Assembly (NCBI GenBank): GCA_016215655.1
Contig: JACRIT010000004.1
Coordinates: 13,492 to 77,491, forward strand
Origin: Acidimicrobiia bacterium
GTDB taxonomy: Bacteria > Actinomycetota > Acidimicrobiia > Spongiisociales > UBA11373
Direction: 5' to 3'
Length of the DNA: 64,000 nt
A program made the position numbers and the translations under genes. Shown one piece after another: positions 2,805 to 43,359 of the stretch. Positions within the stretch are counted from its first letter, which is position 1. Each line of letters begins with the position of its first letter. The notes beneath the pieces were generated by a model. It was given only the letters and a program-made list of their open reading frames with translations, searched no databases and was not told the origin of the DNA.

Positions 2805-4025
2805 ATGGGGAGACAGGGTCGATGGCTGAAGCGCTTCGCGCTGCTCGCAGCGGTGTCGCTCGTCGTTGCCGCGTGCGGGGACGATGACGGCGAAGCGCCT
2901 GAGGACTTCAAGTTCGGCATGATCCTCGTTGGTCCGCAGAACGACCAGGGTTGGTCGCAGGCGCACTACGAGGCGGGGTTGTACGTGGTCGAGCAACTGG
3001 GCCTGCCCGCCGACGCGATGATCGTCCTGGACAAGGTGAACACGGCGGATCGCCCGGAGACCTCGATCGAATCGGTCGTGGACGAGATGGTCGCAGGCGG
3101 TGCGCAGATGATCTTCGCCACGTCGGATGACATGAAGGACGGCATCGAAGCTGCGGCAGCGCAGCATCCCGACATCCCGATGATCTGGTCATCGGGTGAC
3201 AGTGCCTGGGCTGACGGCAAGGGCTATCGCGCCGATCTCACCAATCTCGGCAACATCATGGGGCGCATGGAGTACGCCAAGATGATTGCCGGGTGCGCGG
3301 CGGCGCTGACCTCGCAGACCGGGAAGCTCGCCTACCTCGGTCCATTGATCAACGATGAGACCCGCAGGCTGGTGAACTCCGCGTTCCTTGGGGCGCGGTA
3401 CTGCTGGGAGAACTATCGGGAGCAGGATCCGAGCACGCTCGGTTTCGAGGTCAAGTGGATCGGCTTCTGGTTCAACATCCCCGGATTCACCCTCGATCCG
3501 ACCCAGGTGACGAATGAGTTCCTGGCGTCCGGTGCCGATGTGGTCATTTCGGGAATCGACACCACCGAGGCGATCGTGCGGGTCGGCCAGGCGTTTGCCG
3601 CCGATGAGGCCGTGTGGGCCATTCCCTACGACTTCAGAGGCGCGTGCGCAGCCGCTCCTGCTGCCTGCCTTGGGGTTCCGTACTTCAACTGGGGGCCGTC
3701 GTACGTCGATGCGATGCAGTCGGTGATCGACGACGAGTTCGAGGCGACCTGGTTGTGGCTCGGTCCGGACTGGGACGACATCAACAATCCCGACACGAGC
3801 GCGGTCGGCTGGGTGTCCGGTGAAGGACTCTCCGCCGAGGCGTCGGCCAGCCTCGACGACTTCATTGCCGGACTCGGCAGTGGCGACATCGAGCTGTACC
3901 GCGGGCCGTTGAACTGGCAGGACGGTTCCGTCTTCCTCACCGATGGTGAGGAGGCGACCGACTTCCAGATCTGGTACGCCGAGCAGCTGCTCGAGGGCAT
4001 CGTCGGCGCCAGCGCCGCCGAATAG
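2805..4025 (+). CDS. BMP-family ABC transporter substrate-binding lipoprotein (nucleoside/sugar, PnrA/Med-like)
   Basis: ATG at 2805 preceded by GGAGGGAG. Signal peptide with lipobox LVVAAC, then a BMP/PnrA-type periplasmic binding fold. The M at 2610 in the ORF track is likely upstream read-through. Confidence 0.8.
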   Translation: MGRQGRWLKRFALLAAVSLVVAACGDDDGEAPEDFKFGMILVGPQNDQGWSQAHYEAGLYVVEQLGLPADAMIVLDKVNTADRPETSIESVVDEMVAGGAQMIFATSDDMKDGIEAAAAQHPDIPMIWSSGDSAWADGKGYRADLTNLGNIMGRMEYAKMIAGCAAALTSQTGKLAYLGPLINDETRRLVNSAFLGARYCWENYREQDPSTLGFEVKWIGFWFNIPGFTLDPTQVTNEFLASGADVVISGIDTTEAIVRVGQAFAADEAVWAIPYDFRGACAAAPAACLGVPYFNWGPSYVDAMQSVIDDEFEATWLWLGPDWDDINNPDTSAVGWVSGEGLSAEASASLDDFIAGLGSGDIELYRGPLNWQDGSVFLTDGEEATDFQIWYAEQLLEGIVGASAAE

Positions 4026-4090: not shown

Positions 4091-5551
4091 ATGAGCCTCG
4101 TACTTCGCAACATCCACAAGCACTACGGGTCGGTGCGCGCCAACGATGGCGTCGACCTCGAGATCGCTCCCGGGGAGTTGCACGGTCTCCTCGGCGAGAA
4201 CGGCGCGGGGAAGTCGACCTTGATGAAGGTCGTCTCGGGCTTCATCGCCGCCGACTCGGGGTCGATCGAATTCGATGGCGCACCCCTTGGCGTCGCCTCG
4301 CCTCGCGTCGCATTGGAGCACGGCATCGGGATGCTCCATCAAGATCCTCTCGTCTTTCGTCCCTTCAGCGTCCTCGACAACTTCCTGCTGGGGAGCGCGG
4401 GCGGTGTGTTGGTCGATCGCAAGGGCGGGCGTTCGTCGCTCGCCGAGATGGCGGCCCGTTATGGGTTCGACTTCGACCCCGATGCCGATGCCCGCAGCCT
4501 CACGGTGGGCGAGCGCCAGCAACTCGAGATCACCCGCCTGCTGTGGCGCGGCGCCAGGGTGCTCATCCTCGACGAGCCGACCACCGGGATCTCGGAGCCG
4601 CAGCGGGTCAAGCTCTTTGCGGTACTGCGCCAGCTCGCCGCCGAGCGCCTGATCGTGATCTTCGTGTCCCACAAACTCGAAGAGGTCGAGGCACTGTGTC
4701 ACCGGGTCACGGTGATGTCCCGGGGCAGGGTGGTGGGGCGGCGCGAGCTCCCCACGCCGCGTCATGACCTGGTTCGACTCATGTTCGGCGACATCACGCT
4801 GGGCGGGGCCCGGCCGGAGGTCACCCTCGGCGATCCGGCGCTGAGCCTGCGCGGTGTGGCCGCTCGCACGCGCGGCGCTCCCCTCCATGCCGATCTCACC
4901 GTGCGTCGTGGCGAGGTGCTCGGGTTGGCGGGTCTCGAAGGCAGCGGTCAGCGCACCTTCCTCCGGCTGTGCGCCGGGCTCGACCCGGTGGGCTCGGGAA
5001 CGATCGTCATCGGCGGTCATGATCTCGCCGGCAAGCCGTACCGCCGGTTCCTCGACGCCGGTGTGCACTACATCCCGGCGGGACGGCTCGAGGAGGGACT
5101 CATCGCCGGTCTCTCGGTGGCCGAGCACTTCGAATTGGTGGGACCCAATCGGTCGTTCATGGTGGATCGCGGCGCCGCCGACACCCTTGCCGCCGAGCGG
5201 ATCGCCGAGTTCTCCATCAAGGGGGAGGCGGCGACGACGGCCGAGGCGCTGTCCGGGGGAAACCAGCAGCGGTTGCTCATGGCCATGGCCCCGGACCATC
5301 CGGTGCTCCTGCTCATGGAACACCCCACCCGGGGCCTGGATCTCGGCTCGGCGCAGTGGGTGTGGGACCGGATGCTGCGGTCGCGCGCCGGCGGCACCGC
5401 GATCGTGTTCGCCTCGTCCGATCTGGAGGAGCTGCAGCGCTACAGCGACCGCATTGCGGTGTTCTACGAGGGCAGGATCATCGCGGTCATCCCGGCGTCG
5501 ACGGCGACCAGCTCATCCCTGGGGCTGCTCATCGGGGGAGTGGTGTCGTGA
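4091..5551 (+). CDS. ABC transporter ATP-binding protein with duplicated ATPase domains
   Basis: Two Walker A motifs (GENGAGKST and a degenerate GLEGSGQRT) and the LSGGNQQR signature; start MSLVLRNIHKHYG. Alternative GTG start at 4049. Confidence 0.8.
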   Translation: MSLVLRNIHKHYGSVRANDGVDLEIAPGELHGLLGENGAGKSTLMKVVSGFIAADSGSIEFDGAPLGVASPRVALEHGIGMLHQDPLVFRPFSVLDNFLLGSAGGVLVDRKGGRSSLAEMAARYGFDFDPDADARSLTVGERQQLEITRLLWRGARVLILDEPTTGISEPQRVKLFAVLRQLAAERLIVIFVSHKLEEVEALCHRVTVMSRGRVVGRRELPTPRHDLVRLMFGDITLGGARPEVTLGDPALSLRGVAARTRGAPLHADLTVRRGEVLGLAGLEGSGQRTFLRLCAGLDPVGSGTIVIGGHDLAGKPYRRFLDAGVHYIPAGRLEEGLIAGLSVAEHFELVGPNRSFMVDRGAADTLAAERIAEFSIKGEAATTAEALSGGNQQRLLMAMAPDHPVLLLMEHPTRGLDLGSAQWVWDRMLRSRAGGTAIVFASSDLEELQRYSDRIAVFYEGRIIAVIPASTATSSSLGLLIGGVVS

Positions 5552-6588
5552 AGCGACTGCGATCCGCACCCCTCGCCCTCGCCGCCGCTCTCGGAGCGAT
5601 CGTCGTGATCCTGTTCGCCGCCGGAGCGCCGCCGCTCGAGGCGATGCGGGTGATCTTCGAGGGTGCATTCGGCACCACCGATCGCCTCGGCGCCACGCTG
5701 ATGGCGTGGACCCCACTGGTGCTCGCCGCCGCCGGACTCCTCATCACCTTCCAGGCCGGCCTGTGGAACATCGGGGTCGAAGGCCAGATCGCCATGGGGG
5801 CGATCGGAGCAGCCTGGATGGCGCGCTCGGTCGAGGGGCCTTCGCTGGTCGTGGTCCCCCTCACCCTGATCGGTGGCGCGGTGTTCGGCGCGGCCTGGGC
5901 GCTCATCCCTGCCTGGTTGCGTACGCGCTTCCGGGTCCACGAGATCTTCTCCGGGGTGGCGCTCTCCTTCGTCGCCGCTGCGATCGCGGTCTATCTCATC
6001 ATCGGACCCTGGTCGCGCACCGGGGTGGCGTCGACGAGCGGCACCGACATCTTCGACCCGCGGGCGTGGCTGCCGACGATCGGTTCGTGGCGGGCGTCAC
6101 CGGTCGGCATCGGCGCGGCGGTGGCGGCGGTGGCCGCGGTTCTGGTGTTGCTGCGCGGCTCTCGGTTTGGCCTTCGCATCCGGGCGGTCGGGCGCAATGC
6201 GGAGAGCGCCCATCTCCTCGGCATCCCCACGCAGCGCTACCTCGTCGCCGCCTTTGCGATGTGCGGGGCCCTGGCGGGAATCGCCGGGACCGTGCAGGCC
6301 ACCGGGTTCCACCACAAGCTGGTGCCGTCGATCTCAGGTGGTTACGGGTTCCTCGGGGTGCTCGTCGTGCTGCTCGCCGGCTTCCGGGCGCTGTGGATCG
6401 CCCCCATCGCGCTCTTCTTTGCGGCCATCCAGGTGGGCAGCACGCAGCTGTCCCTGCGGTTGGGCATCGACTCGTCCCTCGCCGGGGTCATTCAGGGGGC
6501 GCTCGTGCTCGTGGTGCTGATCGTCGGCGGCTTCCAGGTGTACTCGGCGGCGCGCGGCCCGGTCGTCACCGGCGAGGGGGAGGCCTGA
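5548..6588 (+). CDS. ABC transporter permease
   Basis: GTG start overlapping the ATPase stop (GTGA); multi-TM permease following a BMP/ATPase pair. Confidence 0.75.
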   Translation: MKRLRSAPLALAAALGAIVVILFAAGAPPLEAMRVIFEGAFGTTDRLGATLMAWTPLVLAAAGLLITFQAGLWNIGVEGQIAMGAIGAAWMARSVEGPSLVVVPLTLIGGAVFGAAWALIPAWLRTRFRVHEIFSGVALSFVAAAIAVYLIIGPWSRTGVASTSGTDIFDPRAWLPTIGSWRASPVGIGAAVAAVAAVLVLLRGSRFGLRIRAVGRNAESAHLLGIPTQRYLVAAFAMCGALAGIAGTVQATGFHHKLVPSISGGYGFLGVLVVLLAGFRALWIAPIALFFAAIQVGSTQLSLRLGIDSSLAGVIQGALVLVVLIVGGFQVYSAARGPVVTGEGEA

Positions 6589-7528: not shown

Positions 7529-7717
7529 GGAATCGCTCTACCCGCTGCCCGCTGCCAGCTTCCGGCTCAAGACCTCGTTACCCGTTACCCGTTACCCGTT
7601 GCCCGTTGCCCGTTGCCCGTTACCCGTTGCCCGACCCGTGATCGTCCGGTACCCGGCACCCGGCACCCGGCACCCGGCACCATCTGGCATCTGGCATCTG
7701 GCATCTGGCATCTGGTC
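7529..7717. repeat. modular heptamer tandem-repeat element 'C' (arrays of TTRCCCG, CACCCGG, CATCTGG)
   Basis: Three contiguous heptanucleotide arrays (about 4-7 units each) between convergent gene ends. The ORF-track translations through this region (PVTRCPTRDRPVPGTRHPAPGTIWHLASGIWHL) confirm the periodicity. Confidence 0.7.
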
Positions 7718-10004: not shown

Positions 10005-10142
10005 GGGAAGACGCTACCGGCTTCCCGCTCCCAGCTGCCGGCTTCCGGCACGAGTCGTTGCCCGTTGCCCGTCGCCCGTCGCCTGTCGTCCGTCACCCGG
10101 AACCCAACGGGCATCTGGCATCTGCCGCGTACCTAGTCTCGC
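10005..10142. repeat. modular heptamer tandem-repeat element 'D' (same module order and orientation as C)
   Basis: Shares the leader ctaccggct.cccgct.ccagct.ccggc, then YGCCCGT units, CACCCGG and CATCTGG units; lies in a divergent promoter region. Confidence 0.65.
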
Positions 10143-30109: not shown

Positions 30110-30182
30110 GAACCCGGTCTCCGGTCACCAGGCCGGACTGGAGACTGGTGACTGGTGACCTCTGGACGAGTAGCCTCGCCCG
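30110..30182. repeat. heptamer element 'F' (GACTGGW units)
   Basis: ggactggagactggtgactggtgacc immediately after the sufB stop. Confidence 0.6.
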
Positions 30183-30665: not shown

Positions 30666-30782
30666 GCGAGGAAGTCGCCAGTCCCCAGTCTCCAGTCCCC
30701 ATCAGGAACACGAGCAAGCTCTGTCGGGTAGCGGGCAACGGGCAACGCAACCGAGGACTGGTGATCGCCTAGGGGTGACTGC
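30666..30782. repeat. heptamer element 'G' (CCAGTCY units, inverted relative to F, plus GGGCAAC units)
   Basis: ccagtccccagtctccagtcccc, then gggcaacgggcaacg, then ggactggtga. Confidence 0.6.
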
Positions 30783-31604: not shown

Positions 31605-31705
31605 AGGGTACCGGAAGGAGTATTCAGTCCTCAGTCTTCAGAATGAGAACCTTGTTCGGGCTGACGACTGATGACTGATGACTGATGACTGATGACTGAT
31701 GACTC
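31605..31705. repeat. heptamer element 'H' (CAGTCYT units plus about 6 CTGATGA units)
   Basis: In the divergent region between galU and nucS; the array ends 18 nt upstream of the nucS ATG. Confidence 0.7.
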
Positions 31706-31722: not shown

Positions 31723-32388
31723 ATGCGACTGCTGGTGGCCAGGTGCTCGGTCGACTACACGGGTCGCCTTGCGGCGCATCTCCCCATGGCGATACGACTC
31801 ATCATGGTGAAGGCCGACGGATGCGTGGCGATCCATGCCGACGGCGGCGCCTACAAGCCCCTCAACTGGATGAACGCGCCGAATCACCTCGAGGAATCGC
31901 CGGGACGGTGGGTGGTCACCAATCCCAAGGGCGAGAGCCTGGTGATCACCCTCGAGGACGTCATCGAAGACCGGTCCATCGAACTGGGGCCGGATCCGGG
32001 CCTCGAGAAGGACGGTGTCGAGAGGACGCTGCAGCATCTGCTCGCCGACCGGGCCGCGGTGATCGAGCCCGGCCTGGAGATCCTCGAGCGGGAGTACGCC
32101 ACCGACCTCGGTCCCGTCGACCTGTTGTGCCGCGACATCGGCGGCCAGGTCGTCGCCGTGGAGATCAAGCGTCGCGGTGAGATCGACGGTGTCGAGCAAC
32201 TCACCCGGTACCTCGAACGTCTCAATCGCGACACCACGCTCGCTCCCGTGCGCGGCATCCTTGCCGCCATGACCGTCACCCCGCAGGCCCGGACGCTGGC
32301 CGCGGCGAGGGGCATCGGCTGGGTCGAGGTCGACTACGACCTGCTGCGCGGCCTGGAGGGCAGGGCGCCGCGGTTGTTCGAGGTGTGA
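31723..32388 (+). CDS. nucS: endonuclease NucS (EndoMS, mismatch-specific)
   Basis: [16 protein letters not shown]... aligns over the full length with mycobacterial NucS; an alternative ATG at 31699 lies inside the last CTGATGA unit. Confidence 0.85.
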
Positions 32389-32466
32389 GTCCTCAGTCCT
32401 CAGTGAGAGGATCGAAGAGCGGAGAGAGCCGACGATCACTCTGTCTGATGACTGATGACTGATGAC
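32389..32466. repeat. heptamer element 'I' (CAGTCCT units plus about 3 CTGATGA units; direct repeat of H)
   Basis: Between the convergent nucS and sigma-factor stops. Confidence 0.65.
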
Positions 32467-33399
32467 TCAAAGCAGGCTCTCCAGGTCGAATCCGCTCGAG
32501 GGGTGGCGCAGCTTGGCGAGGGCCCTGCCTTCGATCTGTCGGACTCGTTCCCGGGTGAGATCGAATGCCTTGCCGACATCGGACAGGGTTCGCGGCGGGG
32601 TCCCATTCAGGCCATATCGCTGCACGATCACGGCGCGCTCCTGTTCGTCGAGCGCGGTCATCGCCGATTCGAGTTGGCGGCGGGCGGAAGCACCGGCGGC
32701 GACCTCAAAGGGGTCGAGTGCTGCCTCGTCTTCGACGAAGTCACCGAGTTCGGCATCGCCGTCCGTTCCGACGGGACGCTCCAGCGACACGGTGTCACCG
32801 GGAGTCGTGAGCGCAAAGGCGACCCGTTCCAGGTCGAGACCCGACACCAGGGCGATCTCCTGCATGGTCGGCTGGCGCCGGAGCCGCTCTTGCAGGCTCA
32901 GCGCCGTCTCCTGGACGGTGCGCACCACATCGACCATGTGCACCGGGAGGCGGATCGTCCGGCCCTGGTTTCCCAGACCGCGGGTGATGGCCTGGCGAAT
33001 CCACCACGTCGCATATGTGGAGAACTTGAAGCCCTTTCGCCAGTCGAACTTCTCCACGGCTCGGATCAGTCCGAGGTTGCCCTCCTGCACGAGGTCGAGC
33101 AGGTCGAGGCCACGGCCGGTGTAGCGCTTGGCGATCGAGATGACGAGGCGGAGGTTGCTCCGGATGAACTCCGCCTTGGCCTCGTCGGCAGCGTGGATGT
33201 CGCGATACAGGCGGGCTCGTTCCGTCGGGGTGAGGCGGCCCTTGACGTCGAGGGTCTGCTGGGCACGCCGGCCGGCTTCCATCGCCCGTGACAGCCGGAC
33301 TTCATCCTCGGCGGTGAGCAGGTCATGGGCAGCGACGGATTCGAGGTACATCCCGATGCCGTCGGACAGTGGTGCCGTTTCGCGCAGCCGCTTGGCCAC
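32467..33399 (-). CDS. RNA polymerase sigma-70 family factor (group 2, SigB-like)
   Basis: Regions 1.2, 2 (DLVQEGNLGLIRAVEKFD), 3 and 4 present; GTG start after GGGAGGAG. Confidence 0.85.
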   Translation of the reverse strand: MAKRLRETAPLSDGIGMYLESVAAHDLLTAEDEVRLSRAMEAGRRAQQTLDVKGRLTPTERARLYRDIHAADEAKAEFIRSNLRLVISIAKRYTGRGLDLLDLVQEGNLGLIRAVEKFDWRKGFKFSTYATWWIRQAITRGLGNQGRTIRLPVHMVDVVRTVQETALSLQERLRRQPTMQEIALVSGLDLERVAFALTTPGDTVSLERPVGTDGDAELGDFVEDEAALDPFEVAAGASARRQLESAMTALDEQERAVIVQRYGLNGTPPRTLSDVGKAFDLTRERVRQIEGRALAKLRHPSSGFDLESLL

Positions 33400-35877: not shown

Positions 35878-36635
35878 GTGCTGCCCTCAGGGTCGCCGGA
35901 CTCGACGTGCGGCTCGGTGAACTCCACATCATCCGAAACCTCGACCTCGAGGTCCCGTTCGGAGAACTCCACGTGATGATGGGGCCGAACGGGTCGGGGA
36001 AGTCGACACTGTGTCACGCGCTCATGGGCCGACCCGGATACCTGGTCTCCGGAGTCGCCGAAGTGGGCGGCGTGGACGTTCTTGGACTCGAGGTCGACCG
36101 GCGCGCCGCAGCCGGCCTCTTCGAGGTGTTCCAGTATCCCGTCGAGATCCCGGGGGTGACCCTGCGCGACCTGATCGCCGAGATGGCCGAGGCAGGGGGA
36201 GAGGCGATCGGTCATCGTGCCGTGGAGGTGGCGGCGCGACTCGACACCTCGTCGTTCTGGGACCGACCCGTCAATGTCGGCCTCTCCGGAGGAGAGAAGA
36301 AGCGCTCCGAGATGACGCAGTTACTGGCGCTGGCGCCGCGTATGGCCATCCTCGACGAACTCGACTCCGGCCTCGACGTGGACGCGGTGCGCGAGGTCGC
36401 CGAAGCAGTGCAGCACATGCGTGGCCCGGATCTCGGGGTCCTGGTGATCACCCACTACACCCGGGTGCTGCGATATCTCGAGGTCGACCGGGTGCACGTC
36501 ATGCTCGACGGTCGCATCGTCCAGAGTGGCGATCGCAGCCTCGCCGACCGCCTCGACACCGAGGGCTACGACGGTCTGCGCACCAGTCTCGGCATGAGCC
36601 ATCCGGAGGGTGATTCCTTTCTGACGGGGCTGTAG
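35874..36635 (+). CDS. sufC: Fe-S cluster assembly ATPase SufC (divergent paralog 1)
   Basis: Walker A GPNGSGKST, signature LSGGEKKR, Walker B ILDELDSGLD, H-loop ITHY. Confidence 0.8.
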   Translation: MSAALRVAGLDVRLGELHIIRNLDLEVPFGELHVMMGPNGSGKSTLCHALMGRPGYLVSGVAEVGGVDVLGLEVDRRAAAGLFEVFQYPVEIPGVTLRDLIAEMAEAGGEAIGHRAVEVAARLDTSSFWDRPVNVGLSGGEKKRSEMTQLLALAPRMAILDELDSGLDVDAVREVAEAVQHMRGPDLGVLVITHYTRVLRYLEVDRVHVMLDGRIVQSGDRSLADRLDTEGYDGLRTSLGMSHPEGDSFLTGL

Positions 36636-36894
36636 GAAGCGCGATGCGCAATGCGCAATGCGCAATGCGCAAGTCCCGGAGGCCGCAATTCGCAACTCGC
36701 AATTCGCACGACGCGTGCCACACACCGGGCGCGTCTGGCGAATTGCGCCGAGAACCGCTCTCTGTCCCGGATCCCGAGCCATGCGACTACGTCCCAAGAG
36801 CGGACAGGGACTGACGAATTGAGCATTGCGGGCTCTGACAGACGGCCGTGCGGAGACGCCTAGCCTTCCCTCAGATTGCGAAGGAGGACGCCGG
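36636..36894. repeat. structured repeat 'J' (GCGCAAT and GCAATTC arrays plus a GAATTGC-box core, inverted relative to K and M)
   Basis: The reverse complement of J's core aligns at about 80% with the core of M (cccgcaatg..caa.tcgtcagtccc...atggctcgggatc.gggac...ggttctcggcgcaattcg). Confidence 0.65.
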
Positions 36895-38274
36895 ATGCGC
36901 ACCGAACGTGACTCGATGGGGGAGATGCTGGTTCCCGACGATGCCTACTACGGCGCCTCCACCCAGCGGGCGGTGGAGAACTTCCCGATCTCGAACCTCC
37001 GTCTCGGCAGGCGGATGATCGCCGCACTCGGCATGATCAAGTCGGCGGCCGCCGAGGAGAATGCCGCCCGCGGCATCGTGGCGGGAGAGATCGCCGGAGC
37101 CATCCGTGCCGCTGCCGAGGAGGTGGCGGCGGGGACCCTCGACGACCAGTTCGTCCTCGACGTGTTCCAGACCGGGTCCGGCACTTCATCGAACATGAAC
37201 GCCAACGAGGTGATTGCCAACCGCGCCAACGAGCTGCTCGGCGAGCCCCGAGGCAGCAAGAAGGTGCACCCCAATGATCACGTGAACGCGGGCCAGTCCT
37301 CGAATGACGTGATCCCCACCGCGATCCATATCGCCGCCGTGGCCGCTATGCGTGAAGACACCATTCCGGCCCTCGAGCGGCTCGCCGCCGCCCTCGAGCA
37401 CAAAGCCGAGGAGTTCGATCACATCGTGAAGGCCGGCCGCACCCACCTCATGGATGCCACTCCGATCCGTCTGGGCCAGGAGTTCAGCGGGTATGCAGCC
37501 CAGGTCCGGCTGGGAGTGCGTCGCCTCGAGGCCGCCCTTCCGGGCCTCGAGGAGCTCGCCCTGGGCGGAACGGCGGTTGGGACCGGCATCAACACGCCGG
37601 CCGGATTCGCCGCCGGGGTGATCGGGCGCATGGCCGAGCGCACCGGCTACCCGTTCACGGAAGCCGCCAATCACTTCGAGGCACAGGCGGCCAAAGACGC
37701 CACCGTGTTCGCCAGCGGAGCACTGAAGACCGTGGGGGTGTCGCTCTTCAAGATCGCCAACGATCTGCGATGGCTCGGCTCGGGGCCGCGCACCGCCATC
37801 GGGGAGATCAGCCTGCCGGCCACCCAGCCCGGCTCATCGATCATGCCCGGAAAGGTGAATCCGGTCATGGCCGAGTCGGTGATGCAGGTGGTGGCCCAGG
37901 TGGTCGGCAACGATGCCACCGTGACCTGGGCGGGCGCCAACGGCAACCTCGAGCTCAACGTGATGATGCCGGTGCTGGCCCACAACCTCATCGAGTCGGC
38001 GGAGCTGATCGGCTCGGTCTGCGATGCCTTCCGGGAGAAGTGCGTCGAGGGCATCAAGGCGAATGAGGAGCGGGCGGCGATGCTGCTCGACCAGAACATC
38101 TCGATCGTCACCGCCCTCGCTCCGAAGATCGGATACGACAAGTCCGCCGAGATCGCCAAGAAGGCGTTTGCCACCGGCAAGGGCGTCCGTGAGGTTGCGC
38201 TCGAGGTCTCCGGACTCAGCGCCGCGGAGCTCGACCGCGCCCTCGACCTCTACCCGATGACCGAGGGCGGGTAG
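36895..38274 (+). CDS. fumC: class II fumarate hydratase (fumarase C; aspartase not excluded)
   Basis: ATG after GAAGGAGG; signature [11 protein letters not shown] within context [10 protein letters not shown], closer to FumC. Confidence 0.75.
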
Positions 38275-38443
38275 GCAGGGCGGCCGCCGGAGGCGGCCAC
38301 CGCAATTCGTCAGTCCCGCGGCTCGCGTCGGGTCGGTTCGATTGGCTTGGGACCTGGGACTGCGGCCGCCGCTCGGCGCAATTCGTTAGGCGCCCCAGGC
38401 CCAGGCGCGACGCTCTGACGAATTGCGAATTGCGAATTGCCTT
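38275..38443. repeat. structured repeat 'K' (GAATTGC-box core ending in about 3 GAATTGC units)
   Basis: About 70% identical to M over about 140 bp; abuts the left inverted repeat of the IS30 element. Confidence 0.65.
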
Positions 38444-39645
38444 GGCTTCAAGTGGTGGTCGCGACGTCTGACCTCGAGGAGGGGTTATGGGACGTCGGAA
38501 GACCGGCTGGGGCGTGGCGCGGGTGGCGTTGTTCGAGTTGGGTCGGGGGGCGACGTTGCTGGTGGCGGCGCGGGCCGCCGGGGTGTCGGTAGCGACGGTG
38601 ATCCGGTTGGCGGCCGAGTATGGGGTGATGCCACTGCCAGCTGCCAGGCCCCGAGAGAACGCGTTGACGGTTGCCGAGCGTGAGGAGGTTTTGTTGGGTA
38701 TCAGTCGGGATGAGTCGGATGCTTCGATCGGCCGCCGGTTGGGGCGGCATCGGGGCACCATCGGCCGTGAGATCCGTGCCGGTGGAGGCAGGGGACGGTA
38801 TCGGGCTCACCTCGGTCAGGATCGGGCGGAACGGGCGGCGCGGCGGAACCGGCCGAGGTGGTGGCAGACCCGCCCCTGGTTGTGGGACGAGGTGTGCCGG
38901 CTCTTGGAGGAGAAGTGGTCGCCGCAACAGATCGCCGGACGGTTACGCACCGATCATCCCGATGAGCCAGCATGGTGGGTGTCGCACGAGTCGATCTACC
39001 AGGCGATCTACGTCCAGCCCAAAGGTGAGCTGAAAAGCCGCATCGTCAAGGCCTTGCGCCAACCACGAGAGCGTCGACGGCCCCGGGCCAAGGTGGCCCC
39101 AACCCCGGGTCAGGGTCGTATCCCCGAGATGATCAACATCTCCCAACGGCCCGCCGAAGCCAACGACCGGGCGGTGCCCGGCCACTGGGAAGGAGACCTA
39201 CTCATCGGCGCCCACGGCAGCTCCGCGGTCGCCACCCTGGTGGAACGCTCTACCCGCTTCGGAGTCCTCATCGCCCTCGACAACCACACCGCCACCCATG
39301 TCGCCGAACGAATCGCCCAAGCCGCCGCCACCCTGCCCGAACATCTGAAACGATCCCTCACCTGGGACCAAGGCAAAGAACTCGCCACCCACACCAGCTT
39401 CTCGACCGCCACCGACATCCCGGTGTTCTTCTGCGACCCCGCCTCACCATGGCAACGAGGCACTAACGAGAACTGGAACGGTCTCGTCCGCCAATACCTC
39501 CCCAAAGGCACCGACCTCAGCCACCACACCCAAGACCAACTCGACGCCATCGCCGCCAGCCTCAACAACCGACCACGCCAAACCCTCGGATGGAATACTC
39601 CCGCCGAACGATTCAACCAACTCGTCGCGGCCAACCCTTGAGACC
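38444..39645 (+). mobile_element. IS30-family insertion sequence (about 1.2 kb) with imperfect terminal inverted repeats
   Basis: IRL ggcttcaagtggtggtcgcgacg versus reverse complement of IRR ggtctcaagggttggccgcgacg (19 of 23 match); IRR overlaps the transposase 3' end as in IS30; both flanks carry GAATTGC arrays. Confidence 0.75.
38487..39641 (+). CDS. IS30 family transposase
   Basis: HTH N-terminus and DDE catalytic core with IS30 hallmarks ([28 protein letters not shown]); RBS GAGGAGGGG. Confidence 0.9.
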
Positions 39646-39675
39646 GCAGCGAATTGCGAATTGCCAATCGCCGCC
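39646..39675. repeat. GAATTGC array 'L' (right flank of the IS30 element)
   Basis: gcagcgaattgcgaattgccaatcgcc. Confidence 0.6.
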
Positions 39676-40584
39676 CTAGTGCTCCCGGCGCGACGTCACC
39701 CACGCTCCCACGAGGATCAGCACCATGCCCACGGCGGCGATGGCATGGATCGACTCGTGGCGCACCACCACTCCGAGGATGATGGCGACCACGGGGACGA
39801 AGTAGATCGCCACCGAGCCGCGGGTGCTGCCGACACGGCCCACCAGATTGACCATGAGCACCAGGGCGAGGCCGGTACCCAGCACTCCCAGTGGAATCAT
39901 GGCGAGGGCGGAGTCCCACGCCCACGACGACCCCGGCACCTGGAACAGCCCGATGGGTGCGACCACGGCGATGGCGACGAGCTGGGCTCGCAGCAGCACC
40001 GGGGCTGCTCCGTAGCGCTGCTGGAGAGGTACCGCCATGTTCCCGGACAACCCGTACATGGCGACGGCGAGGACGATGAGGCTCGTGCCGAACACGGTGG
40101 CGCTCGAATCGCCGAGTTCGGGGAGGAAGATCAAGACCATTCCCGTGAACCCGATGGCGATTCCCGCCAACTGGCGGCGGCCGGGCAGCCGGCGCATGAG
40201 GATGGTGGCCCAGACCGCGGTGGTGATGGGAACCGCGCCATTGATCATTCCCGCCACCGATGAGTCGATCCACTGCTGCGCTATGGGAAACAGCGAGAGC
40301 GGGATCGCCATCCAGATGATCCCGAGGGCGGCCACCCGGGTCCGATCCACCGGGTCGATGGGTCGGCGCGCCGCCGGCACGAGGGCAAGGGCACCGGCGC
40401 CGAGGACGAGGCGGGCCAGGGTCACAACCCCGGGTTTGAAGGCGTCGAGGCCGATGGCCATGAACAGGAACGACGATCCCCAGATCAGTGCGATGCCTCC
40501 GAGGAGGCCCCAGTCGGCGAGCGTGAAGGCGTCCTTGTGGGTGCCGTGAGCGGTCAGTGCAGAGGCGGCTCGAGTCGTGGTCAT
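39676..40584 (-). CDS. DMT superfamily (EamA-like) transporter
   Basis: 10-TM protein with two EamA domains; internal ATG (MTTTRAAS...) chosen. Confidence 0.7.
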   Translation of the reverse strand: MTTTRAASALTAHGTHKDAFTLADWGLLGGIALIWGSSFLFMAIGLDAFKPGVVTLARLVLGAGALALVPAARRPIDPVDRTRVAALGIIWMAIPLSLFPIAQQWIDSSVAGMINGAVPITTAVWATILMRRLPGRRQLAGIAIGFTGMVLIFLPELGDSSATVFGTSLIVLAVAMYGLSGNMAVPLQQRYGAAPVLLRAQLVAIAVVAPIGLFQVPGSSWAWDSALAMIPLGVLGTGLALVLMVNLVGRVGSTRGSVAIYFVPVVAIILGVVVRHESIHAIAAVGMVLILVGAWVTSRREH

Positions 40585-40622
40585 GCCGGGTACCAACCCC
40601 GCTCCGGGCTCCGGGGTTGCAC

Positions 40623-41102
40623 TCACGTGGGGGTGCCGGAATGCGGGGCAAGGGCTTCGGCGAGCGTGGTCCAGGCCAGGTCGGCGCACTTGACCCGTAC
40701 GGGGAAGCGGCGCACTCCAGCGAGGGACTCGATGTCGCCCAGCACCGCTCCCGGGCGCTCCGGGTCGAGTCCCGGGTCGCCTTCTTCGATGTCGAGGAGG
40801 CGCTTCACCTGATGGGTGAGCGCGTCGATCTCGGCGAGCGTCTTCCCCACGATGCGGTCGGCCATCATCGAGGCCGAGGCCTGGCTGATCGAGCATCCCC
40901 GTCCGGTGATGGCGACGTCGATCACCCGACCGTCGCGCAGCGCCAGGTCCAGGGCGATCTCGTCGCCGCACAACGGGTTGTTGCCATCGGCGTGGGCATC
41001 GGGCGCGGCGAGGCTGCCCGAGCGCCGCGGGTTGCGGTAATGATCGAGAATCACCTGGCGGTAGAGCTCGTCAAGCGACACCGAACAGCCTCCGAGCCTC
41101 AT
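40623..41102 (-). CDS. sufU: SufU / NifU-like Fe-S scaffold (zinc-dependent sulfurtransferase)
   Basis: VILDHYRNPR...CGDE...GCSISQAS...RVKCA conserved cysteines; alternative GTG start at 41081. Confidence 0.8.
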   Translation of the reverse strand: MRLGGCSVSLDELYRQVILDHYRNPRRSGSLAAPDAHADGNNPLCGDEIALDLALRDGRVIDVAITGRGCSISQASASMMADRIVGKTLAEIDALTHQVKRLLDIEEGDPGLDPERPGAVLGDIESLAGVRRFPVRVKCADLAWTTLAEALAPHSGTPT

Positions 41103-42300: not shown

Positions 42301-42349
42301 GGCCCCAGCCCCCAGTCCCCGGTCCCCAGTCCGGGGGGGTGAAGCCTCA
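42301..42349. repeat. heptamer array (CCCCAGT/CCCCGGT, about 3 units) in the sufC-sufS intergenic spacer
   Basis: ccccagtccccggtccccagtcc lies between two genes of the same operon. Confidence 0.55.
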
Positions 42350-43105: not shown

Positions 43106-43359
43106 CGGGGTTGGAGGATACGGGTGGGTTGGTCGGTAGCCAAGGTCGGCCGCCTGGGGGCGGCCTCCCGCAATGTGCAACTCGTCAGTCCCGGTCCTCG
43201 CGCTGGATCGGGTCGTATGGCTCGGGATCTGGGACCGACAGTGGTTCTCGGCGCAATTCGTCAAACGTGCGCTGGCTCCCGGACGCGTCTCACGAATTGC
43301 GAATTGCGCTCCCGGGATTGACGAGCTGCGGATCTGGCGTCTCGCCTGTCCGCTCACCC
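43106..43359. repeat. structured repeat 'M' (GAATTGC-box core plus GAATTGC units)
   Basis: Aligns with K (direct orientation) and with the reverse complement of J. Confidence 0.65.

Follow-up and report, generated by a model that had tools for sequence, protein, structure and literature searches.

The 64,000-nucleotide stretch of DNA analyzed here (hereafter, the window) belongs to contig JACRIT010000004.1 of an Acidimicrobiia bacterium and carries an intact insertion sequence (IS) of the IS30 family, 1208 bp long, at 38441..39648 on the plus strand. The IS lies within a tandem array of the heptamer GAATTGC: three copies precede it (38420..38440, +), and two follow it (39651..39664, +). An earlier note, made from the letters alone, had described an IS30-family element with GAATTGC repeats on both flanks, and both parts of this description were borne out. 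The interval that the note gave for it (38444-39675) does contain the IS, but its end at 39675 takes in the right-hand array and spacer.

By every feature that could be checked, the element is a member of the IS30 family. The region 38200-39800 contains a single long open reading frame (ORF) at 38487..39641 (+), which occupies nearly the whole of the 1208-bp element and encodes a transposase of 384 aa with an N-terminal helix-turn-helix (HTH). The protein scored 287 bits against the NCBIfam equivalog model NF033563 (transpos_IS30; cut-off 80 bits), the match extending over profile positions 2-267 of 267, and its Pfam domains are HTH_38 (residues 60-97) and rve (core at 229-321). Read from motifs in the translation only, the catalytic residues are D237 (HWEGD), D294 (TWDQG), and E328 (NEN), i.e., D-56-D-33-E. 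The element is bounded by inverted repeats of 26 bp, 18 of whose positions match, the left one (IRL, CTTGGCTTCAAGTGGTGGTCGCGACG) at 38441..38466 on the plus strand and the right one (IRR, TGCGGTCTCAAGGGTTGGCCGCGACG) at 39623..39648 on the minus strand; the stop codon of the transposase gene is located inside IRR. The two inverted repeats quoted in the earlier note were found exactly, at 38444-38466 (+), the matched core of IRL, and at 39623-39645 (-), and are unique in the window (0.02 expected by chance), but the true termini lie 3 nt further out at each end. These were defined by alignment with the termini of relatives retrieved from public genomes and metagenomes (~1205-1216 bp), in which 12 nt lead up to a conserved CAAG (GGCGGnTTCAAG or CTTGrTTTCAAG). 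Independent support came from the Logan contig L082, which carries a 93%-identical copy and breaks off exactly at ...GACCGCA, i.e., at the end of the IS.

The window contains 21 copies of the heptamer GAATTGC, where 3.8 would be expected; none of 100 shuffles reached this count. At the insertion, the sequence reads (GAATTGC)3, IS, GC, (GAATTGC)2, C. The earlier note had suggested looking for a target-site duplication, and one of 2 bp was found: the GC at 38439..38440, with which the third heptamer ends, recurs at 39649..39650, and deletion of the IS together with one GC restores a perfect in-phase (GAATTGC)x5. Other readings of the junction were tried and rejected. A 3-bp duplication, as in distant relatives, would include the base after ..CCGC, which is A in 3/3 right junctions, the left flanks having T, C, and C; since the right junctions are constant and the left flanks variable, this A belongs to the IS, and a 3-bp duplication is excluded. 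If the GC were assigned to the IS and no duplication assumed, the joined flanks would be out of phase (GAATT + GAATTGC).

Could the array itself have been made in part by the insertion? On this account, a duplication of 9 or 16 bp would have enlarged an earlier array of 3-4 copies, the IS aiding its expansion. The left flank indeed ends with the same 9 and the same 16 bases with which the right flank begins, and IS1630 duplicates 16-26 bp (PMC3317919). At the same time, the sister copies L118 and L089 (see below) are compatible with a 2-bp duplication only, which makes 2 bp the economical reading for the window as well, and all junctions of the closest relatives are compatible with 2 bp. Moreover, orthologous sites free of the IS already harbor 3-6.5 copies of the heptamer, and arrays in the window far outnumber ISs. 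A partial origin of the array through a long duplication is thus highly improbable.

The orthologous sites are framed by the same genes as in the window. Upstream of the IS, the window harbors fumC, encoding class II fumarate hydratase (36895..38274, +; Pfam Lyase_1 and FumaraseC_C), and downstream of it a gene for an EamA-family transporter (39676..40632, -; Pfam EamA; start codon uncertain); the 3' ends of both genes are directed towards the IS. Homologues of the window FumC include P0125 (97% identical) and P0127 (91%). The contigs encoding them, L120, L121, and L122, are syntenic with this region, having SufBD, Rieske, SufC, and FumC, followed by EamA, NifU, and SufS on the other strand. 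The spacer between fumC and the EamA gene is devoid of the IS in L120 and L121 (FumC 97%) as well as in L122 (91%). In alignment with the reconstructed window spacer, the insertion position is occupied by an unbroken (GCATTGC)x3 in L120 and L121 and by an unbroken array of 6.5 such units in L122. Since these IS-free relatives possess an uninterrupted array, the array is older than the IS, and the latter is a lineage-specific insertion. The array unit of the relatives differs by one base from that of the window (GCATTGC vs GAATTGC), and a motif in the left arm of the spacer repeat changes along with it (GCAATGC in L120 vs GCAATTC in the window). The spacer of L120 also contains an additional array, (GGCGACT/GGAGACT)x4, beside the EamA stop codon (4690-4740), and its counterpart in the window (39665-39675) is without an array; this suggests a rapid turnover of the array content of the spacer between close relatives.

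The same IS (93-99.9% nucleotide identity) and its sister ISs (73-77% amino acid identity) were found in unrelated samples; these elements, all with at least 73% amino acid identity, are referred to here as subclade A, and their copies measure 1208-1210 bp. The earlier note had proposed that other copies be inspected for a heptamer setting, and they turned out to have it: 10 of the 11 subclade-A copies adjoin period-7 arrays, mostly of the ATTGC type, and 9 of the 11 have ATTGC or GCAAT at most 9 nt from a junction. With few exceptions, the junction reads ..GC, IS, GC-N-AA.., and the GC-IS-GC arrangement of the window is common to six further copies (L081, L083, L116, L117, L118, and L119). 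N-A-A occupies positions +1 to +3 of the right flank in all seven copies for which that flank is known, and AAT or CAT is situated 0-2 nt ahead of the GC. The duplication is GC in all copies readable at both junctions, except for L085 (GC/CC) and L089 (AG).

The closest copy, L081 (a 1240-bp Logan contig), encodes the exact transposase and matches the window copy at 1207 of 1208 nt; its right flank, GC GAATTGC GAATTGC GAACTGC GAGCTAC, shares its first 16 nt with that of the window, diverges from there on, and does not occur in the window. Two copies are 93% identical in nucleotides: L082, with (GCAATGC)4 GC on the left and no right flank available, and L083, with (CGCAATA)2 CGC on the left and GCG on the right. 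Among the sister ISs, L116 (77% amino acid identity) is flanked by attgc and gc, L117 (77%) by (GTATTGC)3 and GCGA, L085 (75%) by (GAATTGC)4, with GAATTCC as the third unit, and CC (TAATCCC)n, L118 (74%) by (TGGCTCA)6 TGGC and GC TAATTGC, and L119 (73%) by (GCCAATA)2 GC and GCCAACAGCC. The decayed copy L123 (~76%; protein P0015) has lost most of its IRL, starts with CGCGACG, and is followed by GCATTGC GACATTGC GAATTGC GAATTGC. The last one, L089 (74%), has no array on the left and AG TAACAGC on the right. A scan of genome contigs yielded no copy above 65% amino acid identity, and GAATTGC arrays were present at 0 of the 80 loci.

Period-7 arrays detected with Tandem Repeats Finder (TRF) constitute ~1.1% of the window, hence the association of 10 out of 11 copies with them is far beyond chance; its probability is below 1e-8 even with insertion limited to the non-coding fraction, where the share of arrays is ~5-11% on a crude map. 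Recurrent insertion of this IS lineage into the same class of repeats, at a fixed position and with intact empty sites, is the behavior of a repeat-targeting element. The same figures bear on the possibility that there is no targeting, i.e., that insertion is near-random and only the copies in harmless intergenic repeat DNA have survived. Such survivorship would agree with the position of the site between convergent gene ends and with the distribution of the arrays, which are frequent between the genes of this genome; those which are perfect (0.5% of the window) are all non-coding. On the other hand, nearly all copies adjoin arrays in spite of the small share of the latter in the window and in its non-coding DNA, and the insertions nearly always take the same dinucleotide and phase, mostly in ATTGC-type units, despite the presence of many other heptamer types. 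In addition, the single nucleotide by which L081 differs from the window copy leaves little time for purifying selection. Given the phase-specific insertion and this near-identity, survivorship is quite improbable.

The split array does not stand alone but forms part of a larger repeat, designated K (+), with a body at 38283..38419 and a full extent of 38283-38440 + 39649-39664. Its body contains arms GCAATTCGTCAG at 38302-38313 and 38378-38389. Together with its paralogues M (43155-43345, +) and J (36625-36830, -), K represents an intergenic element of ~150-190 nt with the conserved cores CGTCAGTCCCG and CTCGGCGCAAT. The element begins with a GC-rich hairpin, followed by an arm GCAAT(T/G)CGTCAG and the two cores; then come the second arm, a variable hairpin, and, in the 3' part, CTGAC with the heptamer array. 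Three copies are present in the 64 kb of the window and two per locus in L120-L122 (e.g., at 2915-3100 and 4539-4690 in L120, and at 5750-5950 (-) and 7487-7660 in L122). Its multiple intergenic copies, conserved sequence, and inverted-repeat arms are those of an element of the type of repetitive extragenic palindromes (REP) and bacterial interspersed mosaic elements (BIME). No Rfam family matches the window. As to the conjecture of the earlier note that a single element had been split by the insertion, K joined to the outer part beyond the IS (L) aligns lengthwise with M and with the IS-free orthologous spacers, with the in-phase array at the seam, so the conjecture held. Upstream of fumC, the element is oriented in the window and in L122 opposite to L120 and L121; the elements themselves would therefore be mobile or invertible.

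In the consensus fold of the element, the heptamers at the start of the array pair up with the near arm and those at its end with the far arm, with a few compensatory changes, although the registers are ambiguous. On this model, the IS would cut off the outer 3' arm (L) from the remainder (K). An alternative reading is that the transposase recognizes a DNA structure (slipped-strand or hairpin DNA, or bending due to the tandem heptamers and the inverted GCAATTC/GAATTGC arms) and not the base sequence. Several observations are in line with recognition of structure: distant members of the clade reside at loops or stem-loop junctions of palindromes with varied sequence, L118 is located at the end of an array of TGGCTCA, a non-ATTGC type, and the arms change in step with the array unit from one orthologue to another (GCAATTC/GAATTGC vs GCAATGC/GCATTGC). 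For the window copy, insertion into a hairpin loop as in the more distant subclade B was nevertheless rejected: the IS has split the array at a point downstream of the first copies, which the DNA fold pairs with the left arm, and outside a loop. Furthermore, the flanks share a sequence (AAT or CAT 0-2 nt before GC; AA at +2/+3 in 7/7 right flanks), other abundant arrays of the window (CGTTACC, CATCTGG, and CTGATGA) are without IS, and shuffled sequences fold with energies that are not clearly worse. Recognition of structure in place of sequence is, therefore, rather unlikely. The earlier note had suspected that the repeats are the structured or palindromic targets known for IS30; the targeting of arrays found support, but the target appears to be a near-palindrome within the array, AATT-GCG-AATT, and not a hairpin loop as judged from the DNA fold. 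This short near-palindrome is formed at each unit boundary of a GAATTGC array and recurs every 7 bp, which fits the IS30 habit of using near-palindromic hot spots.

Transposases with 54-64% amino acid identity (subclade B) are encoded by ISs that measure 1206-1227 bp and have termini of the same kind, but make 3-bp duplications. Most of them are inserted between palindromic arms, often CGTTCTTGCG...CGCAAGAACG or GTTCTGGCG...CGCCAGAAC, at or near the loop; such a setting was recorded for L087, L090, L100, L104, L108, L110, L112-L114, L012, L006, L008, and L018. This points to a widespread REP-like element serving as an IS target in Acidimicrobiia. The occurrence of array and hairpin contexts across the clade indicates, therefore, that the whole lineage targets repeated extragenic elements, and the subclade with at least 73% identity has changed over to heptamers in tandem and a stagger of 2 bp. 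Each subclade has its own consistent version of the first HTH (GVSVATVxRL in A and GLGxRTVDxL in B), and their N-terminal 75 residues are 45-48% identical, vs 58-80% over most of the remaining protein. A link between the difference in HTH and the difference in target may be considered, but these comparisons are suggestive only.

Separately from these contexts, L124 (71% identical) has a copy of the 24-nt direct repeat CGTCCCTTTTAACCCTGGGTACGG on either side (2380-2500 and 3670-3730), together with a 3-bp duplication, gac; this direct repeat is a third kind of repeated target. The relatives L016, L017, and L019 (1371-1372 bp), found in different metagenome-assembled genomes, occupy the same position in a conserved ..ttccagttcgaccagac.. 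in both orientations; their target may be another mobile-element gene.

Taken together, it is quite likely that a young, intact IS30-family IS moved into a pre-existing (GAATTGC)5, that its lineage prefers ATTGC-type heptamers, and that the site is accordingly not a random one. The array would terminate, on the 3' side, a repeated intergenic element located where fumC and the EamA gene converge with their 3' ends. By analogy with the IS30 family, where copy-out/paste-in transposition proceeds via a circle with the IS ends abutted over 2 bp (PMC9333248), the element probably arrived in the same manner, through such a circle. Strand transfer staggered by 2 bp at the GC of one heptamer would then produce the GC duplication. 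The target consensus may be approximated as ..AAT(T)[GC]NAAY.., which in GAATTGC arrays would take the form of the AATT-GCG-AATT near-palindrome, and tandem repetition would provide many equivalent target sites. In IS30 itself, the duplications are of 2 bp and insertion favors near-palindromic hot spots (PMC9333248), and target binding requires an H-HTH motif, according to work cited in PMC1525189. The transposase itself may read the target, the N-terminal HTH being the likeliest reader, as in IS30. The ends of the IS were compared with the target by eye, with IS30-style targeting of inverted repeats in mind, and this inspection revealed no convincing similarity. Since the arrays sit at the 3' ends of genes, it is proposed that the insertions are harmless and hence retained.

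A number of points weigh against the preferred reading. Only one copy of the IS is present within the 64-kb window, and for many of the other copies the contigs are short and show a single flank. The sister copy L089 is situated outside any array, although its right flank, TAACAGC, still matches the NAAY motif, and the GC/CC junction of L085 amounts to an imperfect duplication. Taken alone, the window would fit a 9- or 16-bp duplication equally well, the array being periodic. The fold of the reconstructed element is not much better than that of shuffled sequences (z = -2.1 for DNA and -1.2 for RNA). Finally, the divergence of the N-terminal parts is weak evidence, because N-termini often evolve faster.

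A farther-reaching version of the preferred interpretation is that Acidimicrobiia host an IS30-type lineage with true sequence-specific homing to ATTGC-type heptamers, cut at GC, the arrays of a widespread and undescribed family of intergenic repeats serving as safe landing pads, and a sister lineage that homes to related repeats in their hairpin form with a 3-bp stagger. The considerations for and against this version appear evenly balanced.

Homing of some ISs to repeated extragenic DNA is already established, as is the preference of IS30 for near-palindromic hot spots. The element described here resembles IS30 and other members of its family (IS1655, IS1630, and ISApl1) in having one DDE transposase with a DD(33)E arrangement and an N-terminal HTH, ~26-bp repeats, and a length of ~1.2 kb. 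A stop codon within the right repeat, the 2-bp duplication as in IS30, and the near-palindromic preference are also shared. Unlike in IS30, the hot spot is a tandem 7-bp unit within a genome-wide repeat element, and sister subclades differ in the length of the duplication (2 vs 3 bp). The nearest transposases in a collection of plasmids from cultured organisms are less than 50% identical and bear a generic IS30-family annotation.

Closer parallels are offered by the ISs targeting REP and BIME, which include IS1397, ISKpn1, and ISPsy8 of the IS3 family, IS621, ISPpu9, ISPpu10, and ISPa11 of the IS110 family, and ISRm22 (PMC1525189). As in those systems, all or nearly all copies reside in one class of extragenic repeats at a fixed position, intact empty sites exist, and the insertions are intergenic and apparently harmless. 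The families surveyed there, however, were IS3, IS110, IS4, IS256, and IS5, with IS30 not among them (PMC1525189), and their target is the loop of a single palindromic unit, whereas that of subclade A is a tandem heptamer array; it is the distant members of the clade that use REP-like hairpins. Another IS30-type element, IS1630 of Mycoplasma fermentans, likewise selects repeat-containing intergenic targets; it differs by a 16-26-bp duplication and an inverted-repeat target (PMC3317919), the present element showing 2 bp and direct tandem repeats.

The arrays have counterparts of their own. Short tandemly repeated repetitive (STRR) heptamers of cyanobacteria form intergenic arrays, too. Arrays of the heptamer TAACTGA are on record from the intergenic DNA of Beggiatoaceae, cyanobacteria, and Bacteroidetes (PMC4679880); neither transposases nor insertion sequences came up when that paper was searched for these terms. 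The arrays studied here are similar to TAACTGA and STRR arrays in comprising 2-8 heptamers, in being intergenic only, and in the frequent mixing of several types in one spacer, but differ in the high-G+C Acidimicrobiia host, in the heptamers themselves, and in being set in a larger element with complementary arms. A literature search retrieved neither these heptamer strings nor a description of an association of IS30 with arrays.

Target-specific DDE transposases are uncommon, and those available are useful as models of target capture and, possibly, as tools. Two sister subclades with distinct targets and duplication lengths offer a ready comparison for mapping the determinants of specificity; if the interpretation is true, the pair would represent a natural system for retargeting of a DDE transposase through its N-terminal HTH along with a change in cut spacing. 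The findings also draw attention to a rich and apparently undescribed system of heptamer arrays and ~150-190-nt elements in uncultured Acidimicrobiia, and to repeat elements as a factor shaping where mobile DNA can settle. For annotation, this implies that arrays are where IS copies and breaks in assemblies should be concentrated in these organisms.

Beyond the insertion site, more than 20 short period-7 tandem arrays with many different units are scattered over the window, as a genome-wide habit. The units include CGTTACC x8, CCGGCAC x5, CATCTGG x5, CGTCGCC x6, CTGATGA x6 and x3, CCCCAGT x4, and GCGCAAT x5, and the arrays resemble the heptamer repeats of cyanobacteria and Beggiatoa. Such arrays were located at 65-152, 1577-1627, 7541-7715, 10056-10124, 30136-30159, 30673-30747, 31661-31704, 32388-32467, 36639-36708, 42303-42332, and 43293-43308.

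Near the start of the window, imperfect inverted repeats of ~108 nt (66-173 and 1556-1656) surround a unit of two minus-strand genes (ORFs 217-672 and 669-1505). These repeats consist of mirrored heptamer arrays, GCAATTC x3 + GAAGAGC.. on one side and ..CTTCGCC + GAATTGC x2 on the other, so the unit at 66-1656 looks like a cassette with terminal inverted repeats at its bounds. The same pattern of mirrored arrays around a gene was observed in the metagenome contig L085, where a minus-strand gene is enclosed between (CCCTAAT)n and inverted (AGGGATT)n (1317-1365, 2577-2595, and 3020-3037), with an additional CCCTAAT array after the next gene.

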